From: a virus
Lineage: Duplodnaviria > Heunggongvirae > Uroviricota > Caudoviricetes
Length of the DNA stretch: 7,142 nt
IMG/VR virus record: IMGVR_UViG_2740892219_000009
Span: 1-7,142 of that record
Reading direction: 5' to 3' (one strand)
Position numbers and translations under genes: made by a program. Each line of letters begins with the position of its first letter. Position 1 is the first letter of the stretch. Shown here piece after piece: positions 1 through 7,142 of the stretch. The notes beneath the pieces are model-generated. The model made no database searches, was not told the origin of the DNA, and worked only from the letters and a program-made list of their open reading frames with translations.

Positions 1-11
1 CGGTGGGTTAC
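1..11. repeat. 3' half of a hairpin (cggtgggttac) identical to the 3' arm of the lipoprotein terminator at 3983..4004; cut by the window edge
   Basis: The 11-mer cggtgggttac at 1..11 is identical to 3994..4004, where it forms the loop end and 3' arm of the hairpin gtaacccac-ttcg-gtgggttac. The 5' arm of the copy at the window edge would lie outside the window. Confidence 0.4.
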
Positions 12-47
12 CCCCAAACGAATCGGAAAATCGATACTGGAAAAACT

Positions 48-179
48 CTAACTCGGTGGCCAGTTTTTGTTGACCACTTCATAGCCGTGGTTACGTGTCG
101 GTTGTCGCCCATTATCCGTTCCTTCTGACCACGCCAACATATCGAGGAAGGCTTTACGCTGAGGATTAAGATTTTGCAT
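48..179 (-). pseudogene. N-terminal fragment of a lambda R-type endolysin (lytic transglycosylase), 43 codons then an in-frame TAG
   Basis: Translating the minus strand from ATG at 179..177 gives MQNLNPQRKAFLDMLAWSEGTDNGRQPTRNHGYEVVNKNWPPS*. The first ~35 residues match the conserved N-terminus of lambda R endolysin (NQRKAFLDMLAWSEGTDNGRQ.TRNHGY, including the catalytic-Glu motif WSEGT). Similarity is lost right after NHGYEV and a stop follows at 50..48. The start overlaps the holin 3' end by 14 nt and has a GGGGTG Shine-Dalgarno. Too short for the ORF track. Confidence 0.55.
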
Positions 180-471
180 TTTTCACCCCTGTCAGTCGTT
201 CCCAGAAGTACGTCAGTGCAACCGAACCCATCGCACCACTAATCCCCGCTGTCGCGAGAATCATGTAAATACTGAATCCACTTTCGATGCTGATCAGGCC
301 ACCAATAACACCGGTGAATCCTGATACCACTATTTGAGCCAGAGCATTTATCCAACTCCACGTTGCTTTACTCTGCTTCACATCTATCAGGTAGCGGACC
401 AGACCGCCCCAACCTGCGATGATCAGCAAAACGAGCCAGAACGCTCCGGCAAGGCTCTCTTTTTCGTGCAT
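166..471 (-). CDS. Holin, about 101 aa with three predicted transmembrane segments
   Basis: Track ORF 166..585 (-); the likely real start is the ATG at 471 (MHEKESLAGAFWLVLLIIAGW...). Three hydrophobic stretches (AGAFWLVLLIIAGWGGLV, WINALAQIVVSGFTGVIGGLI, FSIYMILATAGISGAMGSVAL) are followed by a charged C-tail. It sits immediately upstream of and overlaps the R-type endolysin start, downstream of the Q candidate and late promoter. The start has no obvious Shine-Dalgarno, so the exact start is uncertain. Confidence 0.7.
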   Translation of the reverse strand: MHEKESLAGAFWLVLLIIAGWGGLVRYLIDVKQSKATWSWINALAQIVVSGFTGVIGGLISIESGFSIYMILATAGISGAMGSVALTYFWERLTGVKNAKS

Positions 472-782
472 ATGAATAGCCAATGTTTCGCCGCCGACAA
501 AAGGCCGGGACGTTAAATGACAGAAAGTTTGTTCACGAGGTAATTTAACGACAAAGCACGAGGTTAAAACTCCCTCAAAGACCAAAGATAAAAAAGGTCT
601 ACGCTGTTGGTTTCAGAGTTAGTTGCAATATTTCCTGATTATCCTAAGCTGAGTTCTGACTCACCAATTCAGGATGTATTTCAAAGAAGGATGATTAGTT
701 AGATTAATTAAAAAATCTATAAGGGCTCATGAAGAAAGCTAGAAAAAAATCAAATTAACGAACCAAAGCATTGGAAAAACAA

Positions 783-1094
783 ATGAAAGCAATTCAAATA
801 ACTTTAATATTATTACTGTGCAGCACAATCACTGCATGCTTTGCCTCCGATTCTGAAGGAAAATATGTTCAAGGTGACTGCATCACGGCTAACGACTCAA
901 GTTACACTTGGTTTGGTGAGGTGGCAAAAGTAGAAGCCTACACATATATCACTGGTTTTGCCGGTCCAAAGTACATCCTTTACTTCCCTTATTACAAAGC
1001 TGACTCTGTAGTTTTTGAACCTGAAATCGAAAATCACACGATTAAGGTTCCCTCCCGTTACTGTCAAAATATTAATAACGCTTTATCAAGATAA
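783..1094 (+). CDS. Small secreted protein or lipoprotein of unknown function (about 103 aa) in the Q-holin gap; AT-rich moron candidate
   Basis: Track ORF 771..1094 (+) begins at a TTG; the ATG at 783 gives MKAIQITLILLLCSTITACFAS..., a typical signal peptide with a possible lipobox ITA-C or an AXA-type cleavage site. The mature part has two Cys. The gene is visibly AT-rich compared with its neighbours and lies on the strand opposite to late transcription. No family recognised. Confidence 0.55.
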   Translation: MKAIQITLILLLCSTITACFASDSEGKYVQGDCITANDSSYTWFGEVAKVEAYTYITGFAGPKYILYFPYYKADSVVFEPEIENHTIKVPSRYCQNINNALSR

Positions 1095-1155
1095 GAAAGA
1101 ACCAAAACCACGATTATTAGATTTGTGCTCAAATTCACAATTATTGTGTACTATC

Positions 1156-1192
1156 TTCAAAGAATAAGCCCAAGGCTTTAAACCTCGGGCTT
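1156..1192 (-). terminator. Intrinsic terminator candidate on the minus strand (tR'-like), about 50 nt downstream of the candidate late promoter
   Basis: Minus-strand RNA would form a 10-bp stem AAGCCCGAGG / CCUUGGGCUU (one G-U pair) with a 7-nt loop UUUAAAG, followed by AUUCUUUGAA. On the plus strand the same dyad has an A-C mismatch and a weaker U-tail, so it may also act weakly for the plus-strand moron gene. Confidence 0.45.
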
Positions 1193-1247
1193 GAATTTGG
1201 ATTACTACCAGTGCGTACAACATTGGCAAAATATCAGATTTACATGA

Positions 1248-1276
1248 AATATATGCTTTTTAATCCAGTTTTGCAA
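1248..1276 (-). promoter_or_regulatory. Candidate sigma70 late promoter (PR'-like): -35 TTGCAA, 17-bp spacer, -10 TATATT
   Basis: Read on the minus strand: TTGCAA (1276..1271), a 17-nt spacer, then TATATT (1253..1248). Both hexamers are 5/6 to consensus with optimal spacing. The -10 lies 7 nt past the Q-candidate stop codon and the predicted start site (about 1241) is upstream of the hairpin at 1192..1156. This matches the lambdoid arrangement Q - PR'/qut - tR' - lysis genes. Confidence 0.4.
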
Positions 1277-1949
1277 TATCTTGCTGTGAAAATGTCGCCT
1301 TTTGTTTTGAACGTGTTCTCGTTACCAGCAATAAAGCTTCGCTATCAAGCTGTAGAAAAATGCGCTTCATTGCAACCCAGCGTTCAGTGAATGTCTCAGA
1401 CCAGTTTTTTGATGTCACTCCCACCAGTGATGCCAGCTCCTGGTATTCATAGGTCTCACGCCCTGCCAGTTCGCTCTTCACATCCTGTGCTGCCAGCCAG
1501 ATTAACGTCTTCAGGCGATCCAGTGTTTTACCTGCAATTTTTCTGGTACCCAACAGAGCCTTAAACTCGCTCCATGCCCACTGCGTTATGGCAACCTGAT
1601 GCTCCCAGCGAATATTTTCACTGTAACTCCACAGCAACCATGCTTTCTGATGTTCATCGAGAGACAAAATCGCACGCCGCCATGAAGAGGTTGAAAACTC
1701 GACCGAACTGACCAAGGCGACAGATGAACCTTTTGCGTACGACTGTTTACCGGAAATCGGCGGATTATCCAGCGTAATCATCTTGCCAGTTACCTCATCC
1801 AGAATGCGCGGCTTCTTTCGTTTATATGTACCAGTATCAAATTGTGCATGCTCCAGCCAGGCTTCAAGCTGGCCTTTCGTTGCTCCGCTCAAATCAGCGG
1901 TAGCCACCATGAGTTGCTCGCGGACATACTGTAAATATTGGATATTCAT
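1260..1949 (-). CDS. Putative late-gene antiterminator in the Q position (229 aa; not the lambda zinc-finger Q type)
   Basis: Track ORF with ATG at 1949 preceded by AAGGAG at 7-nt spacing; its start overlaps the ylcG-like stop (ATGA). It sits between rusA/ylcG and the late promoter and holin, exactly where lambdoid phages carry Q. The protein contains no cysteine, so it is not a lambda-type Q; assignment is positional. Confidence 0.5.
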   Translation of the reverse strand: MNIQYLQYVREQLMVATADLSGATKGQLEAWLEHAQFDTGTYKRKKPRILDEVTGKMITLDNPPISGKQSYAKGSSVALVSSVEFSTSSWRRAILSLDEHQKAWLLWSYSENIRWEHQVAITQWAWSEFKALLGTRKIAGKTLDRLKTLIWLAAQDVKSELAGRETYEYQELASLVGVTSKNWSETFTERWVAMKRIFLQLDSEALLLVTRTRSKQKATFSQQDIAKLD

Positions 1950-2086
1950 GCGGCAGCTCCTTTCAGCGTTTTGGCGTAATTCTTCAGTATCCGGTAATCG
2001 GTCAAAACAGAACCGGGAAAACTATATAAGCGCAGACACACCCAGCGGCGGCGAAGACGTTCTGCCATATAAGACTCAAACATCAT
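1946..2086 (-). CDS. ylcG: YlcG-like small protein (46 aa) between rusA and the Q candidate
   Basis: Hand-translated from the minus strand: [46 protein letters not shown]. The start overlaps the rusA stop (ATGATG over TGA) and the stop overlaps the Q ATG. Size and position match the small ylcG ORF of DLP12-type prophages as I recall it. Too short for the ORF track. Confidence 0.5.
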
Positions 2087-2445
2087 TCATCTCCCAGTTC
2101 AGTGATGGTCAGCTCCAGCTTCCCACCTTTGGTAACGGGCATCTTCACAACGCGGTAATCAACGACCTGAGCATCATCCAGCCAGAAACCTGCTTTGGTG
2201 AGAGCGTCAAAAGCGGCTTTTTGCAGATTATCCAGGTCACGGCGACGGCGATCCGGCATGTGGCACTCAATGCGGATTTTCACAGGAATAGCCAGGCCGA
2301 TATCCAGCATTGCGTTTTTAATGATTTGGGCGACGTTATCGCGGTATGCCTGCCCCTCTGCGCTGATATGCGTGCGTCCGCGATTATGGCGGTAATAGCG
2401 ATTATTGCTCGGCGGCCAGGGTAGTGTGATGCAGTAAGTATTCAC
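2083..2445 (-). CDS. rusA: RusA Holliday-junction resolvase (120 aa, GTG start)
   Basis: Track ORF 2083..2508 (-) is over-extended upstream; the GTG at 2445 overlaps the ybcO stop (GTGA). The sequence [24 protein letters not shown]...[38 protein letters not shown] is near-identical, from recall, to E. coli RusA, including the acidic catalytic cluster. Confidence 0.9.
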
Positions 2446-2732
2446 GCCTTGATTACCCCTTCTTTCAGCCAGATAACCAGTGTTCTCGCCATACCTTCCA
2501 GCGCACATTCTTTTGCATATCCAGCGTCAACAAAATGCGTGCGACGGTCGATTTCGTCGTGGCAGGCAGAACATGCAATGGTGGCAATCAGGTCTGGCGG
2601 TTTGGTACCGGTGCCGCACAATCCAGTCAGCCGGATATGTGCCAGTACAGACGTTTCAGGGTTGCCATTACATACGCCAGGGATTCTTACCTGGCATTCC
2701 CGACTACGCGCTGCTTTTCTCAAATCAGCCAT
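2442..2732 (-). CDS. ybcO: YbcO-family (DUF1364) putative zinc-binding nuclease (96 aa)
   Basis: The start at the internal ATG ([24 protein letters not shown]...) is preceded by AAGGAGG at 5-nt spacing inside the ninE 3' end. A four-Cys pattern (C-x7-C ... C-x2-C) is present. Track ORF 2442..2771 is an upstream extension. The position between ninE and rusA matches the DLP12 order. Confidence 0.8.
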
Positions 2733-2895
2733 GATTCCTCCTTGCTGCCAGTCGCAACCATTTTTTATCAACCAGGCTGGCGGTATATCCGAGCAGTGTT
2801 GGTATTTCGGAAGGCTTCAGCTCCGGTTTACGCTTACGACGATTTGGTACTCTGTAGATGTGTCCGCTCATGACACGAATAAGTGGTGTAGCCAT
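2725..2895 (-). CDS. ninE: NinE-like protein (56 aa)
   Basis: Hand-translated from the minus strand: [56 protein letters not shown]. The ATG at 2895 overlaps the ninB stop (TAATG) and is preceded by AGGAGG; the stop overlaps the ybcO start (ATGGCTGA). Too short for the ORF track. Confidence 0.7.
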   Translation of the reverse strand: MATPLIRVMSGHIYRVPNRRKRKPELKPSEIPTLLGYTASLVDKKWLRLAARRNHG

Positions 2896-3350
2896 TACGC
2901 CTCCTGCTTGTCGCGCAGCAGCTGGAACTCGCAGCTCTGCGGAATAGTCAGGTGACAGCCAATATTCATCGCCCAGGCTTCAACCTTACACAGGAAGACA
3001 TACATCTCTCCGGTATCAAGATCGGAGGTATGGCGTAACGACTGGATCGTAGTAATTTCACCGGTTACGACATCAACCAGGTCTTTGGTTTCATAACCGA
3101 GGTATGTGTGTTTGAGTGCATCTTTTACCCATACTGCAGTAGCGAACGTTTTACCCCTGCTGATGAGGTACTCACTGATTTCGCTGTACCACATGTGGCT
3201 GAGTGCATTCTGGGAAAGACTGCGTCTCTCGCGCCACGGCTTAAGCACCATGCGAAAGCATTTACCGTCCTCCAGATAAGGCTGGATCTGCTGACCGATA
3301 GCGGTGAAGTTACCGCGATGCAGTTTGATGCCATCTTGTGGGAGGTTCAC
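2895..3350 (-). CDS. ybcN: NinB/Orf-family recombination protein (YbcN-like, 151 aa, GTG start)
   Basis: Track ORF; GTG start at 3350 with a GGAGGT Shine-Dalgarno 5 nt upstream. The motif [23 protein letters not shown] resembles the lambda NinB core (RNRSLDQNRKLW...). It is the first gene of the overlapping nin chain. Confidence 0.8.
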
Positions 3351-3555
3351 GCTTCACCTCCGCAGAGGTCAAACGCTAGATGCAAAGAATTGCAGGTGCA
3401 TTTCTGCATCTGTGAAGGGAGAAGAGAGTTTGGATTGTATGTGCGCATAAACGTCCCCGTTTAGCGCAACCCCACCGCCGGGTGTTCAGGCCGACAGCAG
3501 AAGAATTTTCTCTTATTGATAATTGAAAATCAAAAGAATTTTATCGGTAAATGAT

Positions 3556-3584
3556 GTGATCAGATAAGAACCACATGATAGAAT
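3556..3584 (+). promoter_or_regulatory. Candidate promoter for the lipoprotein gene: extended -10 TGaTAGAAT with a weak -35 GTGATC
   Basis: TAGAAT at 3579..3584 is preceded by TG at 3576..3577; a weak -35 (3/6) lies 17 bp upstream. It sits about 37 nt before the ribosome-binding site AAGGA and the ATG at 3621. Confidence 0.3.
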
Positions 3585-3620
3585 CCGCCGGATTTTTTAG
3601 TGTAACAAAAGGAAAAAATA

Positions 3621-3977
3621 ATGAAAAAAATGTTGGCTGTCGCATTGGCAACCCTTTTGCTGACCGGATGTACCGTTCGTGTAGCAGACCTTACTGTAGC
3701 CAGTACAAAAAACTATAATTTAAATGGTGGTAAATTTTACAAAGGAAAACGCGTAACTGCAGAAGATAGCTATCCTGTTATCATCTTCCCAACAGGTATT
3801 CCCAATGTAAAAACTGCTGCCGATCGTGCAATCGAGCAAGACCGTTGCGCTGTGGGTCTGACTGACGTTGTTGTAACACAACTTAACCAATCATTCCTGG
3901 TTGGTAAAATTGGTTTACGTGTTGAAGGGAATCTCATTATTGACCGCAGCCTTCCTGGATGCGAAAACGCAGGATGA
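3621..3977 (+). CDS. Lipoprotein (118 aa), probably a divergent Bor/Iss-family member
   Basis: The N-terminus MKKMLAVALATLLLTGC has a canonical lipobox (LTGC) and is nearly the same as the lambda Bor signal peptide. The mature region shows patchy Bor-like similarity by eye (KTAADRAI..., VVTQLNQSFLVGKIGL versus Bor VKTETQQTFVNGLLGF). It is divergent from ninB and followed by a strong terminator. Confidence 0.65.
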   Translation: MKKMLAVALATLLLTGCTVRVADLTVASTKNYNLNGGKFYKGKRVTAEDSYPVIIFPTGIPNVKTAADRAIEQDRCAVGLTDVVVTQLNQSFLVGKIGLRVEGNLIIDRSLPGCENAG

Positions 3978-3982
3978 TGATA

Positions 3983-4010
3983 GTAACCCACTTCGGTGGG
4001 TTACTTTTTA
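3983..4010 (+). terminator. Rho-independent terminator of the lipoprotein gene: 9-bp stem, UUCG tetraloop, U-tract
   Basis: gtaacccac (3983..3991), ttcg (3992..3995), gtgggttac (3996..4004), then ttttta, starting 6 nt after the TGA stop. It is unidirectional; the minus-strand side has no U-tract. Confidence 0.75.
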
Positions 4011-4111
4011 TCTAAATCATATGTGCAGCCAACAAACAATATACAATTTACTCTAAATAGCTGTGGCAGCATTCTCTAACTTAATATTTATTCCGAAACA
4101 GAGTTAATTAT

Positions 4112-5638
4112 TTAAAAATAAACTTCCCCATCAATCATATACCTGAGAGTACTTATCGCCTGTTGGGCAGATATTATTTTCATCAAAGGATAGTGTTTAA
4201 AAACAATACCATTCATAAAATAGATATCACATGTTTTGTTATCTGTGTTTATTATAATTTTTTCGAATGTTTTATAAGCAAGTGTACGACATAATTCCCG
4301 CCCATTTTTACTGGTTAAATCAATGTCATGGAAATCACCAAGTGTACTTACACCTTTACTCTTCAAAGTTTTTAATGATATAGAAACCCTTCGCAATTCT
4401 TTATCTAATACTCTAATTTTTTCTGCTATAGCGGTAACTTCAGGTGCAACAGATAATGCAACAATTAAATTATTAATTTTCATCTGAAGTTCAATAACTT
4501 TCAATTCCAGAGTTTCATTAACATCTTTCTTATTTTCAACTGGTTGGATTTTACTACAATTAAAAAGCAATTCATTAACTATATTATAGTCAACCAAATC
4601 TCTTCTTATTGATGGCCTGTTACATCGATGCAATCTTCTCATCGGGCAAACATAATAGCCGTGCAAGCTTCCTGATACTGCATTAACAATCATAGTATTA
4701 CCACAAGCGCCGCACTTCATAACTGTTCGCAGTAGATTTATCAACATAGGATTCTTGCTACTATTGCTAATACCAAAAGGTGCCAGCCGAATTTCCTGCA
4801 CAGAGTAAAACAAATCATCTGATATCACTCTGGGATAATAGTCAGCGATTTCAATTATTCCCTTCCCTCTTGCACGATATGAAGGTACGCATATACCTAT
4901 CAGCGCTTTATTAGCTAATAATTTTTCAATTACAGAAGGCCCCCATGCACTTTCTTTTCCTGAGAAATTCTTTATAGCATGATCATTTAAATACTTAGCA
5001 ATTGCATTCAAAGAGCGTCTTTCCATCCTTAGTTTAAAAATCAGCTCAATCGTTTTCACCCTGTCAGGGTCTAAGACAAACGACGTTCTTTTTTCATCTA
5101 ATGAAAGCCATCTCGGGCAAGATGCCGTCATAATCGTACCTGACTCCATTGCATCTTGTCTTTTTTTCTTCCATGATAATTTAACTCGGCTTGACTTTAT
5201 CTCGCTTTCTTCATTGGCTCTTTGAGCTATAAGTATTGCTTTTATTAATGAATATGGTTCATTTAAAGAATCAATATTATAAGTTGTATTATCGCACAGA
5301 GTTATAACATCAATACCATGATTTAAAATCAGTTTCAGGCGTTCAATCGCCTCACCGACTTTTTCTCTTGAAAGTCTGTCCAGACTTTCAACTAGCAATG
5401 TAGTTCCTGGCAATATACAGCCATGCTCTATGGCATCTAAAAATTCCGAAAAAGCTCCTGACTGTGCATGCTTTCCATTGAATGCGCTTAACCCCAAATC
5501 TTCATACGTTACGGTATCAAGGTAATAATCACTATTTACCTTTAGCCATTCAGTAATAAGCCTTCTCTGACGGTTTAATGAATCACCAGACATCTGGCTT
5601 GGTGATGAAAATCGCATATATGCTATGGCTTTTTTCAT
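4112..5638 (-). CDS. Large serine recombinase (508 aa; resolvase-type catalytic domain, recombinase domain, Cys-rich zinc ribbon)
   Basis: The N-terminus MKKAIAYMRFSSPSQ...GDSLNRQ...LLVESLDRLSR carries the serine-recombinase catalytic motifs. The C-terminal half has the zinc-ribbon pattern KCGACGN...YYVCPMRRLHRC and a coiled-coil-like region. ATG at 5638 has an AGGTG Shine-Dalgarno. The gene is visibly AT-rich (roughly one-third GC by eye, against over half in the nin module). Size and context recall the DLP12 putative recombinase ybcK, but identity is unverified. Confidence 0.85.
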   Translation of the reverse strand: MKKAIAYMRFSSPSQMSGDSLNRQRRLITEWLKVNSDYYLDTVTYEDLGLSAFNGKHAQSGAFSEFLDAIEHGCILPGTTLLVESLDRLSREKVGEAIERLKLILNHGIDVITLCDNTTYNIDSLNEPYSLIKAILIAQRANEESEIKSSRVKLSWKKKRQDAMESGTIMTASCPRWLSLDEKRTSFVLDPDRVKTIELIFKLRMERRSLNAIAKYLNDHAIKNFSGKESAWGPSVIEKLLANKALIGICVPSYRARGKGIIEIADYYPRVISDDLFYSVQEIRLAPFGISNSSKNPMLINLLRTVMKCGACGNTMIVNAVSGSLHGYYVCPMRRLHRCNRPSIRRDLVDYNIVNELLFNCSKIQPVENKKDVNETLELKVIELQMKINNLIVALSVAPEVTAIAEKIRVLDKELRRVSISLKTLKSKGVSTLGDFHDIDLTSKNGRELCRTLAYKTFEKIIINTDNKTCDIYFMNGIVFKHYPLMKIISAQQAISTLRYMIDGEVYF

Positions 5639-5904
5639 GTTGACACCTGCTAATGCATACTTTTATAAACCTTAGCGGCGAGTTATAATTTTGTTTAATT
5701 TTTATTTAAAAAGACAATCGAGATCACATTTTCTTAAATATACAACAAATACCCCATAGCAATTTGCTGCCACATAAATTCACAGACACAAAAGAATATA
5801 GTGTATAAGCAGCCTAAAAACATTTATCAACAGTATAAAAAGAAGTTCGTTATCAGTGAATTGTTCTGTGATTGGGGATTATTGAACTTCTCGATCGAGA
5901 ATAT

Positions 5905-6198
5905 TCAGAACCCAGCGGGGGAACTCTTTGGCCACAGGAGTTCGTGCGAACATGACGATCCGTTGGTCTCCCCGAAGGCTAAATACTCGAGACGCCTGCA
6001 TTCCACGAGGGTGGTCACTTTGCCCCCTCCTATCATCATGTCTGTAAATTCATCTGAGTGACGAGAGTAAATGCGCTTAGCTGCGTTATCGTCCGCATAT
6101 TCCATTGCTAAACCAACTTCAGTGGCAGTAAGCCAAATTCTGTTGTTGTGGCAAATCGGGGTAAACGTCGTTTTGTGGAATGCTAATTGAGTAGTCAT
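5905..6198 (-). CDS. BRO-N / antirepressor-N-like domain protein (97 aa), possibly a truncated N-terminal fragment
   Basis: ATG at 6198 has a GAGGTG Shine-Dalgarno at 5-nt spacing. The motif F.K..FTPICHNNRIWLTATEVGLAMEYADD...SDEF resembles the BRO-N / P22 Ant N-terminal signature (F.F...IR...DGEPWF.A.DVA..LGY...D.DEK). The ORF ends where composition switches to AT-rich, and there is no C-terminal domain. Confidence 0.45.
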   Translation of the reverse strand: MTTQLAFHKTTFTPICHNNRIWLTATEVGLAMEYADDNAAKRIYSRHSDEFTDMMIGGGKVTTLVECRRLEYLAFGETNGSSCSHELLWPKSSPAGF

Positions 6199-6222
6199 AG
6201 TATCACCTCATCAGGTTAACAA

Positions 6223-6255
6223 TCACCACCAACGACGCCAATCGACAGGTGGTGA
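6223..6255. other. Inverted repeat with 8-bp stem (tcaccacc ... ggtggtga) and 17-nt spacer, upstream of the BRO-N-like gene
   Basis: Arms at 6223..6230 and 6248..6255, inside a GC-rich ORF-free stretch about 25 nt upstream of the BRO-N start. Could be an operator or an RNA hairpin. Confidence 0.3.
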
Positions 6256-6561
6256 ACTGTGCAAGGTTGGCGTAACCGGCTACACAAACCCGGCGCTTCC
6301 GAAGAAGCCCTCACACAGCCCACCATAATTTGGGCGTAGCCGCGCTTAGCGCATAAAAAAACTGCTTAACGCGGTATGCGTTGAGTAGTGTTCCGGGACG
6401 CCAATCCCGTGTGCCGATTTTGCGGCAACACAAAGAATTAGCCCCAGTGAATGGTGGCGGTCAACCGCAGTCATTCATTCTCATAATGTGATCACCATCA
6501 CTCAACAGGTTCCAGAAACCGCTCTATCATACTGACTTTAAACAGTTTTTAGGTGTTAAAT

Positions 6562-6948
6562 ATGTGGTTTATAGTATTAATAGCTATCCTGATTATTGCC
6601 GCTTTCGTTTTTAAAAGCTCCAAATCCAAAAATCCACCTTCGCAACCAGTTCGTACTACTAAAAAAATAAAGGCACCCACACATAAAAAAACGCAAACTA
6701 ACTATAGTTATAGTACCGATATCATTGAGTTAGATATAACTTATCAGGATGCGAAGGGCGAAATCACTAATCGCCATATATCTATCATAAAATACGACCC
6801 TTCAAAGAAAAAAATATATGCACGGTGCCATTTAAGAAAAAGCATGCGAAGTTTCTATATTGATAGAATATTAACCGCAATAGATATTGAAACTGGCGAA
6901 ATTCTTTCAGATCTCGACGGGTATATATCAGAAAGAATAAACTATTAA
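6562..6948 (+). CDS. Small membrane-anchored protein (128 aa) with a WYL-like C-terminal domain
   Basis: Track ORF 6553..6948 starts at a GTG; the ATG at 6562 is preceded by AGGTG at 6-nt spacing. The N-terminus WFIVLIAILIIAAFVF is a single transmembrane helix, followed by a Lys/Ser/Thr-rich linker and a beta-rich domain containing KIYARCHLRKSMRSFYIDRI, which resembles the WYL-domain core (WYL.A.C......R.FR.DRI). The gene is AT-rich. Confidence 0.6.
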   Translation: MWFIVLIAILIIAAFVFKSSKSKNPPSQPVRTTKKIKAPTHKKTQTNYSYSTDIIELDITYQDAKGEITNRHISIIKYDPSKKKIYARCHLRKSMRSFYIDRILTAIDIETGEILSDLDGYISERINY

Positions 6949-7142
6949 CATTCAATATATTTACCCCAAGCATTATGTGCCGGGGCATGTAATTATATGA
7001 CCATTGATAATTCCATTTTGTAAATATTTAGGTTGTCATCAATGATAGTGCGTTTACTTTTCCATACACAGCCAACACTCGTTTCATCGCGACACTCTGG
7101 CGACACTCCTTAAAAATCAGGTTCGTGCTCACCTTTCCTTCC

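Follow-up and report, generated by a model that had tools for sequence, protein, structure and literature searches.

What occupies the gap between the late antiterminator gene Q and the holin gene of a lambdoid prophage when the open reading frame (ORF) found there runs against the late operon, and what might its product do for a lysogen? Enterobacteria owe much of their phage resistance and many virulence traits to accessory genes that a prophage expresses in the lysogen. The majority of those known have been found through recognisable variable sites, and the gene described here is one more such cargo. It lies in a 7,142-nt stretch of IMG/VR record IMGVR_UViG_2740892219_000009 (positions 1 to 7,142), which was analysed as a whole and is hereafter called the window. 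A preliminary description had read the ORF as a signal-peptide protein at a moron site, and the claims made there are taken up below together with the results that bear on them.

The Q-holin interval and its AT-rich cassette

The window covers that end of a lambdoid prophage where the genes for late regulation and lysis lie, the phage operons being on the minus strand. A 103-codon gene for a predicted exported small beta-barrel protein of 103 aa (783–1094, plus strand, stop included; ATG at 783, TAA at 1092–1094 in the ORF list) sits between Q and a LydA-type holin gene and is antisense to both, and the coordinates, strand and neighbours agreed with those first reported for it. Q (1260–1949, minus strand, 229 aa) matched PF06323 with an E value of 2.6e-96, and the holin gene (166–471, minus strand; PF16083, E 2.4e-21) was delimited as the 101-aa protein called in relatives (L001–L007), the mechanical ORF reaching 585. 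An endolysin remnant was located at 48–179 in the ORF list, and beyond Q the ORF list and Pfam matches gave YlcG, RusA, YbcO, NinE and a NinB-like gene. IS911 in the endolysin gene makes the window prophage lysis-defective; the ORF at 783–1094 is nonetheless intact. A tRNA search of the Q-holin gap of the window returned none.

Base composition set this interval apart from its surroundings. The ORF, described at the outset as AT-rich, had a GC content of 38.1%, and the cassette that contains it (597–1160, plus strand; 564 bp, made up of the ORF plus 186 bp upstream and 66 bp downstream) had 35.5%, against 48.0% and 49.7% in the flanks. In 200-bp windows, GC content was 31–41% across the Q-holin interval versus 47–54% on either side. 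The boundaries of the cassette, 596/597 and 1160/1161, were obtained by comparison with E. coli N3 and O157:H7 prophages. Q and holin genes 93–97% identical to those of the window are present in N3 and in several O157:H7 and O55:H7 prophages, and BLAST similarity to these prophages was restricted to 76–596 (76–560 for N3) and 1161–2100. In an O157:H7 prophage, ~99 bp of unrelated DNA stand where the window has the 564-bp cassette. No match to the cassette was found by blastn, even at word size 11, in 5,426 complete RefSeq E. coli genomes, pathogens included; only the late-promoter leader next to it, at 1161–1259, was common, being 95–99% identical in 826 E. coli genomes.

The term moron denotes an extra gene that has been inserted in a phage operon and is expressed independently (PMC2629481). 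The DNA at 597–1160 is present or absent at the same position among related phages, N3 and the O157:H7 prophages being without it, and its GC content (35.5% against 48.0% and 49.7%) is unlike that of the surrounding phage genes. Judged by these sequence comparisons, ORF 783–1094 is a genuine accessory gene of lambdoid prophages by the published definition, its expression in the lysogen being putative, and the earlier view of the Q-holin gap as a moron site acquired a discrete extra cassette as its substance. The comparisons further showed the cassette to be self-contained and AT-rich, inserted just past the tR' hairpin of the late promoter and pointing against late transcription.

An undescribed protein family and its genomic settings

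A word-indexed single-sequence protein search returned only the protein's own cluster, with ten near-identical members from E. coli, E. fergusonii, E. albertii and another Escherichia species. In an assembly collection, 119 blocks were indexed as containing the identical protein, and 24 contigs were read that carry it. Exhaustive phmmer against 1.84 billion representatives (50% clustering) recovered homologues that the word-indexed search had missed, 40 proteins at E ≤1e-3 with 30–53% identity, and the orphan status suggested by the first search was dropped. These homologues, nearly all ~95 aa long, align over their full length around the core KYxxGDCITPxDxxYSWxGxYAxVEA...YxLxFP...IExxTxKV...C. 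Profile searches of a 5.8-billion-protein collection expanded the set to 55 and then to at least 107 clusters (90% clustering), all of them named 'hypothetical' or nameless and none with a Pfam domain.

Searches of curated families gave no match in Pfam, PHROGs, NCBIfam, PADLOC or the PDB sequence profiles, and the defence and exclusion families of PADLOC and PHROGs included none for the window protein or for its homologues at L013 and L019. A tblastn search with the window protein and the L015 homologue found no homologue in 50,697 phage records, and the literature, searched by topic as well as by accession, gave no account of the gene. A relationship to the other lipoprotein of the window was rejected. 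The preliminary description could place the protein in no family, which stood for the curated collections but not for the protein world at large: by the sequences recovered, it is one member of a gammaproteobacterial family that has no annotation and comprises at least 107 clusters. The remote-homology and structure-based searches proposed there ended in a family of homologues, with no curated or significant structural match.

Codon alignments were made of the window gene with nine homologues from prophages and viral contigs. Between the window gene and its relatives synonymous sites were saturated, with amino-acid identity still at 63–68% for the closest eight, and dN/dS, taken only from pairs with unsaturated synonymous sites, was 0.085–0.15. 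The start codon of the relatives, ATG or GTG, falls at the same aligned position and is preceded by AAGGA, and the Shine-Dalgarno sequence of the window ORF is weak (GGA). The alignments show ORF 783–1094 to be under purifying selection.

The genomic settings of the homologues were examined by scans that covered IMG/VR and GTDB genomes. The identical protein was found at seven non-redundant loci, in all of them antisense between Q and the holin gene; terminase and portal proteins at these loci were HK97-like or lambda-like, and the replication modules differed. Homologues with 59–68% identity were found at L013–L018 and in Citrobacter (L021), and others with 43–46% identity at L019 (44% in the tblastn match) and L020 and in Marinomonas, Colwellia and Alteromonas. 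At L013–L019 and L021 the gene again separates Q from the lysis genes and runs antisense to them, as in the window, and homologues from Enterobacter ludwigii (56%) and Yersinia ruckeri (47%) occupy the same antisense slot. The flanking genes are far from uniform: the Q proteins fall into three unrelated families (PF06323, PF03589 and PF06530), the holins into at least four (PF16083, PF05106, PF16931 and PF16080/PF04971), and the endolysins include GH24, PF00959, GH19 and SAR-type enzymes. Relatives also carry a tRNA gene or a DNA methyltransferase gene in the same Q-holin gap, and in Y. ruckeri the methyltransferase gene lies between the homologue and tR'. This survey of the locus across prophages, another check that had been suggested, showed that prophages of Escherichia, Citrobacter, Enterobacter and Yersinia have kept the antisense slot through exchanges of their Q, holin, endolysin and virion modules.

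Several distant members of the family were chromosomal with no phage genes nearby (L008, L009, Marinomonas L022 and Serratia L033), and one was found in a Vibrio parahaemolyticus island with a primase. Comparison of gene neighbourhoods revealed no recurring neighbour genes around the chromosomal homologues. Because these distant members, from marine Gammaproteobacteria and Serratia, are chromosomal and lack a phage context, the family fold may have a cellular role in which phages need not be involved.

Predicted export, fold and transcription

The N-terminus of the window protein, MKAIQITLILLLCSTITACFA|SD, has a lysine at position 2, a 15-residue hydrophobic stretch from I4 to A18 and a c-region of small residues, and the best 11-residue Kyte-Doolittle mean in the h-region was 2.64. 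Rule-based analysis recognised in it the n-, h- and c-regions of a Sec signal peptide with a site at C19-F-A21|S22, and a hydrophobic segment precedes the conserved core in 83 of the 86 distinct family members. The signal-peptide call is based on the rule-based analysis and this family-wide conservation together, and the clear signal peptide of the preliminary description was upheld by both. We infer that the 103-aa precursor is exported by Sec, with residues 1–21 (783–845, plus strand) as its signal peptide.

A possible lipobox had been remarked in the same region. The PROSITE PS51257-like pattern [LIVMFWSTAG](2)-[LIVMFYSTAGCQ]-[AGS]-C, which in a lipoprotein should follow an uncharged stretch and have its Cys invariant among orthologues, does match at T-I-T-A-C19 of the window protein, and also in L014 and L020, but among the eight closest relatives the cysteine is replaced by glycine in two (L015, L018) and preceded by asparagine, which is disallowed at −1, in three (L013, L016, L017), so that the motif, present in the window protein, is not conserved across its clade. 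The closest relatives instead keep a [C/G]-x-A-S c-region without a conserved cysteine. Since the lipobox cysteine is unconserved in them and [C/G]-x-A-S is common to all, a signal peptidase I site is the more parsimonious reading, and we favour such a predicted site, with Cys or Gly at −3 and Ala at −1, as the common denominator in the clade. Most likely, signal peptidase I would cleave after Ala21 to release a soluble periplasmic protein, and the mature product (846–1091, plus strand) would comprise 82 aa, with a mass of ~9.3 kDa and a pI of 4.9.

Alternatively, the product may be an outer-membrane lipoprotein, processed by Lgt and LspA at Cys19, passed to Lol sorting with Phe at +2 and tethered under the outer membrane in the manner of Cor, Llp or Bor. 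The lipobox I-T-A-C19 together with K2 in the n-region of the window protein, the matching L014 and L020 proteins and the clear lipoboxes in 22 of the 86 family members are consistent with this reading, as is the location of the lipoprotein moron Bor, which at L003, L004 and L007 flanks the lysis cassette at its far end and has the same orientation. We nonetheless hold it to be the less likely reading, and the lipobox to be doubtful, in view of the Gly and Asn substitutions around Cys19, of the [C/G]-x-A-S kept by the closest clade, which is compatible with a signal peptidase I site, and of the Ala-x-Ala-type sites in most of the family; nor was there profile similarity to Bor outside the signal peptide (hhalign probability 1.9%) or a Pfam Bor match.

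For the periplasmic protein favoured above, AlphaFold2 (AF2) with a 49-sequence alignment gave a model with a mean pLDDT of 83, rising to 94–97 over residues 31–90. The model consists of a low-confidence helix at residues 3–18 (the signal peptide), a linker, a beta-rich core and a short C-terminal helix, and its core (residues ~28–90) is read as an SH3-like small beta-barrel, a five-stranded fold of the kind that superposes on SH3, Tudor or KOW domains. A single-sequence AF2 model of the window protein (pLDDT 40) was set aside in favour of the aligned one. Foldseek searches of the AF2 model against the PDB and the viral BFVD set found nothing significant.

The earlier count of two cysteines applies to the mature protein (Cys33 and Cys94), the precursor having four (13, 19, 33 and 94). 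Cys33 and Cys94 are both retained in 79 of the 86 family members; retention of this kind is the expected look of a structural disulfide in an exported protein. According to the model and the alignment, the product would be an acidic SH3-like beta-barrel of ~9 kDa in the periplasm, with Cys33 and Cys94 probably oxidised to a disulfide.

Transcription signals were found on both sides of the gene. A PR'-like promoter on the minus strand (TTGCAA-17-TATATT, 1276..1248) overlaps the end of Q and is followed by a 12-bp GC-rich hairpin (1192..1166) whose minus-strand tail, ATTCTTTG, is T-rich, as in a terminator; the late promoter region, with a putative short leader RNA ending at the hairpin, occupies 1165–1276 on the minus strand. 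From the terminator scan and folding energy, which was −19.6 kcal/mol on the minus strand (z −4.4) and −17.4 kcal/mol on the plus strand (z −3.5), the hairpin at 1166–1192 would be the tR'-type terminator of the short PR' transcript and, on the plus strand, the probable terminator of the ORF. Because its plus-strand tail, GAATTTGG, is not T-rich, termination on that strand may be leaky. The stop codon of the window ORF is 72 nt before the hairpin, whereas in relatives (L013–L018, L021, L031 and L032) fewer than 10 nt or so lie between the ORF stop and the equivalent hairpin, that of L016 scoring as a terminator on both strands. The leader at 1165–1244 gave a full-length but sub-threshold match to Rfam isrJ (25.1 bits against a gathering score of 37). 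Since the small RNA directly after Q in Gifsy-1 is IsrK, not IsrJ (PMC4825925), we did not adopt an IsrJ identity and take the match only as a sign of a putative short terminated leader.

On the upstream side, a standard scan of the window for sigma-70 promoters gave no site above threshold before the ORF. The best site of a lax hexamer scan, at 7/12, was a weak candidate promoter at 695–723 on the plus strand (−35 TTAGTT at 695–700, a 17-nt spacer and −10 TATAAG at 718–723). Its −10 aligns with a TAAAAT that is conserved in seven relatives and was called promoter-like on the plus strand in L017 and L031, where it ends 30 nt before the ATG. The AT-rich cassette makes H-NS silencing plausible.

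PR' is constitutively active, and in lysogeny its transcript is terminated immediately downstream (PMC7547250). Given the anatomy of the window, PR' transcripts in a lysogen would stop at the hairpin, 72 nt short of the 3' end of the gene, and the gene itself would be read from its own weak candidate promoter and terminate at the same hairpin. Upon induction, Q-modified polymerase would cross the gene in antisense and should shut it off.

Possible functions and known counterparts

The best explanation of the whole, to which we assign a probability of about 0.5, is a moron that is expressed in the lysogen and silenced by Q read-through, and whose product is an exported, disulfide-bonded barrel with a role at the envelope. 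A predicted exported binding-type fold, an antisense slot kept across genera, independence from the surrounding modules and non-phage homologues fit a lysogen-expressed envelope protein. The module independence, the cross-genus antisense slot and the non-phage chromosomal homologues also speak against two other roles, regulation of lysis and a Cor-like block of the receptor used by the phage itself, the latter further because the identical protein rides with different virion modules. Speculatively, the barrel could be a binding module for a component of the lysogen envelope, such as peptidoglycan or a protein of the periplasm or outer membrane. If one function is to be named, our tentative and speculative choice as the likeliest would be protection of the lysogen at the envelope by exclusion of superinfecting phage; similarity to exclusion or defence proteins was sought in PADLOC, PHROGs, BFVD and the PDB, with none found.

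A fitness or virulence role unrelated to phages is about equally likely. The gene would then encode a conversion factor without phage exclusion, conferring serum resistance of the Bor/Iss type, envelope-stress tolerance or host interaction, and the exported barrel would bind a host or environmental ligand or a component of the bacterial envelope. The family members in non-phage chromosomal contexts in Marinomonas, Colwellia, Alteromonas and Serratia point to a general envelope function, the carrier prophages have unrelated virion modules, and the gene is intact in a window prophage that IS911 in the endolysin gene has left lysis-defective. Set against these points are the lack of similarity to any known virulence or fitness factor in curated and PDB searches, the inconsistent neighbours in the chromosomal contexts and the absence of the cassette from the 5,426 complete RefSeq E. 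coli genomes, pathogens included. Like phage exclusion itself, this role can be put forward only tentatively.

Returning to the lysogen-expressed envelope protein, a more far-reaching version of this reading, offered with greater reserve, can also be drawn. The window protein may represent, in Escherichia, a so far undescribed family of SH3-like barrels, exported and disulfide-bonded, that was captured once by Enterobacterales lambdoid prophages and kept as a fixed antisense moron at PR'/tR'. It could provide a new envelope protection, for example a receptor or DNA-entry block against heterologous phages, and its expression would follow the choice between lysis and lysogeny, to which the shared tR' hairpin and convergent Q-dependent transcription would couple it.

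We consider it improbable that transcription itself is the selected function, with convergent transcription into tR', PR' and Q damping leaky late expression and the protein being secondary. Such an arrangement would suit the strict conservation of the antisense orientation and the ORF stops directly at the tR' hairpin in L013–L018, L021, L031 and L032, and in the window the weak plus-strand tail of the hairpin makes read-through towards PR' and Q plausible. However, strong purifying selection on the protein sequence, the cysteine pair, the signal peptide and the confident predicted fold show that the protein itself is selected, and the gene stands apart from tR' both in Y. ruckeri, where the methyltransferase gene intervenes, and in the window, where the distance is 72 nt.

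It is more improbable still that the product acts from the periplasm on the lysis cassette next to it, as an antiholin or as an inhibitor of the endolysin comparable to T4 RI or a periplasmic lysozyme inhibitor, and would set lysis timing or block leaky lysis. The gene does adjoin holin and endolysin genes in every prophage locus, and its product is a predicted periplasmic protein of ~9 kDa. Transcribed against the late operon, however, it should be silent while the lysis genes are expressed, and the chromosomal homologues have no lysis genes nearby. Moreover, since at least four unrelated families are represented among the holins beside it and the endolysins are as diverse as GH24, PF00959, GH19 and SAR-type enzymes, one binding partner is unlikely. 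Finally, the reading of ORF 783–1094 as a chance ORF in an AT-rich spacer, which the missing curated family match, the poor single-sequence AF2 model (pLDDT 40) and the weak Shine-Dalgarno sequence (GGA) and promoter of the window might have suggested, is refuted by the phmmer homologues, at least 107 homologous clusters, a dN/dS of ~0.1, a pLDDT of 83 once an alignment is supplied, and the start position and Shine-Dalgarno sequence conserved in relatives.

As a single 564-bp cassette, the window gene is a well-defined target. A phenotype would make it a new domain family and a new exported lysogen effector, and if there is no phenotype it would be one more conserved hypothetical moron.

Among known systems, lambda Bor (PF06291) shares the most features of layout, being likewise a small exported protein of ~100 aa whose gene adjoins the lysis genes and is antisense to the late operon. 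The prophage expresses Bor, and in L003, L004 and L007 its gene lies in the same orientation on the opposite side of the same lysis cassette. The window gene differs in its position on the Q side, directly after tR', in its lack of sequence or profile similarity to Bor beyond the signal peptide, and in the unconserved lipobox of its family. The Bor/Iss profile (PF06291) gave no Pfam match, and hhalign of the family against L003 Bor returned a probability of 1.9%, over the signal peptide only, on which a relationship to Bor was rejected.

A second comparison is with the cargo of the Q-holin gap in other phages. The stx genes are co-oriented with the late operon. Like stxAB, tRNAs and other genes, the window gene occupies the variable insertion site just downstream of PR'/tR', where Shiga toxin is controlled by Q antitermination of PR' (PMC7547250). 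Because of its antisense orientation the window gene cannot be expressed in that way, and unlike Shiga toxin it has no A-subunit partner. The StxB subunit (PF02258 / NF041704) was rejected as a relative, its matches being at the level of the signal peptide only (15.9 bits against a cut-off of 203; E 0.0098 and 0.074).

With respect to the fold, PsaE, NdhS, the CarD N-domain and the KOW, Tudor and CAP-Gly barrels share 6–20% identity with the window protein at Foldseek E values of 0.095 or worse. All of these SH3-like barrels are cytoplasmic or eukaryotic, and none has a signal peptide or the Cys33–Cys94 pair; the modelled likeness is one of fold and need not reflect homology. T4 RI and Spackle are periplasmic proteins of ~100 aa that bind holin T or gp5 lysozyme and so control lysis or exclude superinfection. 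Both are helical, whereas the window protein is a predicted beta-barrel, has no sequence match to them and comes from a different, prophage context.

Cor (phi80, N15 and HK022) and T5 Llp, small exported phage proteins that act at the envelope by blocking the FhuA receptor, provide our preferred functional model; Llp is a Cys-containing lipoprotein of similar size. Morons as a kind are already known, and the protein family is new to description: by analogy, the window gene comes closest to lambda Bor in its layout, may resemble Cor or Llp in its action, and is a member of none of these families.

Companions of the homologue in related loci

Between the homologue of the exported-protein gene (window 783-1094, + strand) and the holin, the prophage or viral locus L017 carries a gene for tRNA-Thr (CGU) that lies on the strand of the late genes (5858-5932, − strand), and in our reading of the alignment the upstream regions of three further such loci (L013, L014 and L016) and of the Citrobacter locus L021 contain putative degraded tRNA genes. 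No tRNA gene was found in the corresponding space of the window. In L021 (3248-4300, − strand) and in the two Yersinia ruckeri loci L027 and L028 (4339-5385 in both, − strand), the Q-holin gap contains, besides the homologue, a gene for a methyltransferase of about 350 aa; the Y. ruckeri products belong to PF01555 (N6/N4 DNA methyltransferase), and the Citrobacter product is named solely from its sequence. As a methyltransferase gene and a homologue thus occur within one Q-holin gap, several cargo genes accumulate at this site.

In Vibrio parahaemolyticus (L029 and L030, 4001-4285, + strand), the homologue (52% identity) is co-oriented with its neighbours in an island whose genes include those for a primase (Toprim/DUF5906) and an HNH protein; this island is another kind of mobile element than the lambdoid prophages.

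Within the family, residues 1-25 of the L013 homologue (6001-6285), corresponding to its signal peptide, gave a weak, non-significant match to the Shiga-toxin B-subunit model NF041704 (E 0.0098), and one member of alignment A1 gave a similar non-significant match to PF02258 (E 0.074). Both matches most likely reflect chance similarity of signal peptides.

Flanks of the lysis genes

The window opens (1-78) within one end of an IS911 element (IS3 family), these first ~78 bases having 100% identity to copies in >2,600 E. coli genomes, and the remnant of a GH24 endolysin gene lies at 48-179 on the − strand. Because similarity between the window and related prophages begins at base 76, this gene breaks off after codon 43 of 158, and the window's prophage is probably lysis-defective.

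In three prophage loci whose protein is identical to that of the window (L003, L004 and L007), a gene for Bor (PF06291; 4138-4431, + strand) is oriented like the main gene on the opposite side of the lysis cassette, and the lysis genes of these loci are thus flanked at both ends by antisense exported-protein genes.

Further genes in the window

Another AT-rich gene that runs opposite to the phage operon lies in the nin region (3621-3977, + strand); its 118-aa product has a clear lipobox (LLLTGC; Pfam LPAM_1) and matches phrog_7441, a PHROG of unknown function (E 1e-67); comparison of this protein with the main gene's family revealed no relationship. Also inside the nin region, an island of 27-41% GC includes the gene for a large serine recombinase of 508 aa (4112-5638, − strand; Resolvase, Recombinase and Zn_ribbon_recom), and the same gene is present at ~90% identity in loci L004 and L005. 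The 131-aa protein encoded at 6553-6948 (+ strand), which is hydrophobic near its N-terminus and WYL-like in its C-terminal part, matches the PADLOC model PDLC03787 (RTasWYL-YodC, DRT; E 6e-9) and, weakly, Pfam WYL, and its gene may be a defence-associated accessory gene.

The PR' leader and the adjoining cassette end

The 3' untranslated part of the AT-rich cassette contains a perfect palindrome, CACAAT-T-ATTGTG (1136-1148), which overlaps a promoter-like site on the − strand (1140..1113). On the same strand, the stretch at 1165-1244, spanning the PR' leader and the tR' hairpin, gave a full-length but sub-threshold match to Rfam isrJ (25.1 bits against a gathering threshold of 37, E 0.037). 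IsrJ is an sRNA of the Salmonella prophage Gifsy-1, but the leader is not equated with it here, since the sRNA located directly after Q in Gifsy-1 is IsrK, not IsrJ (PMC4825925).
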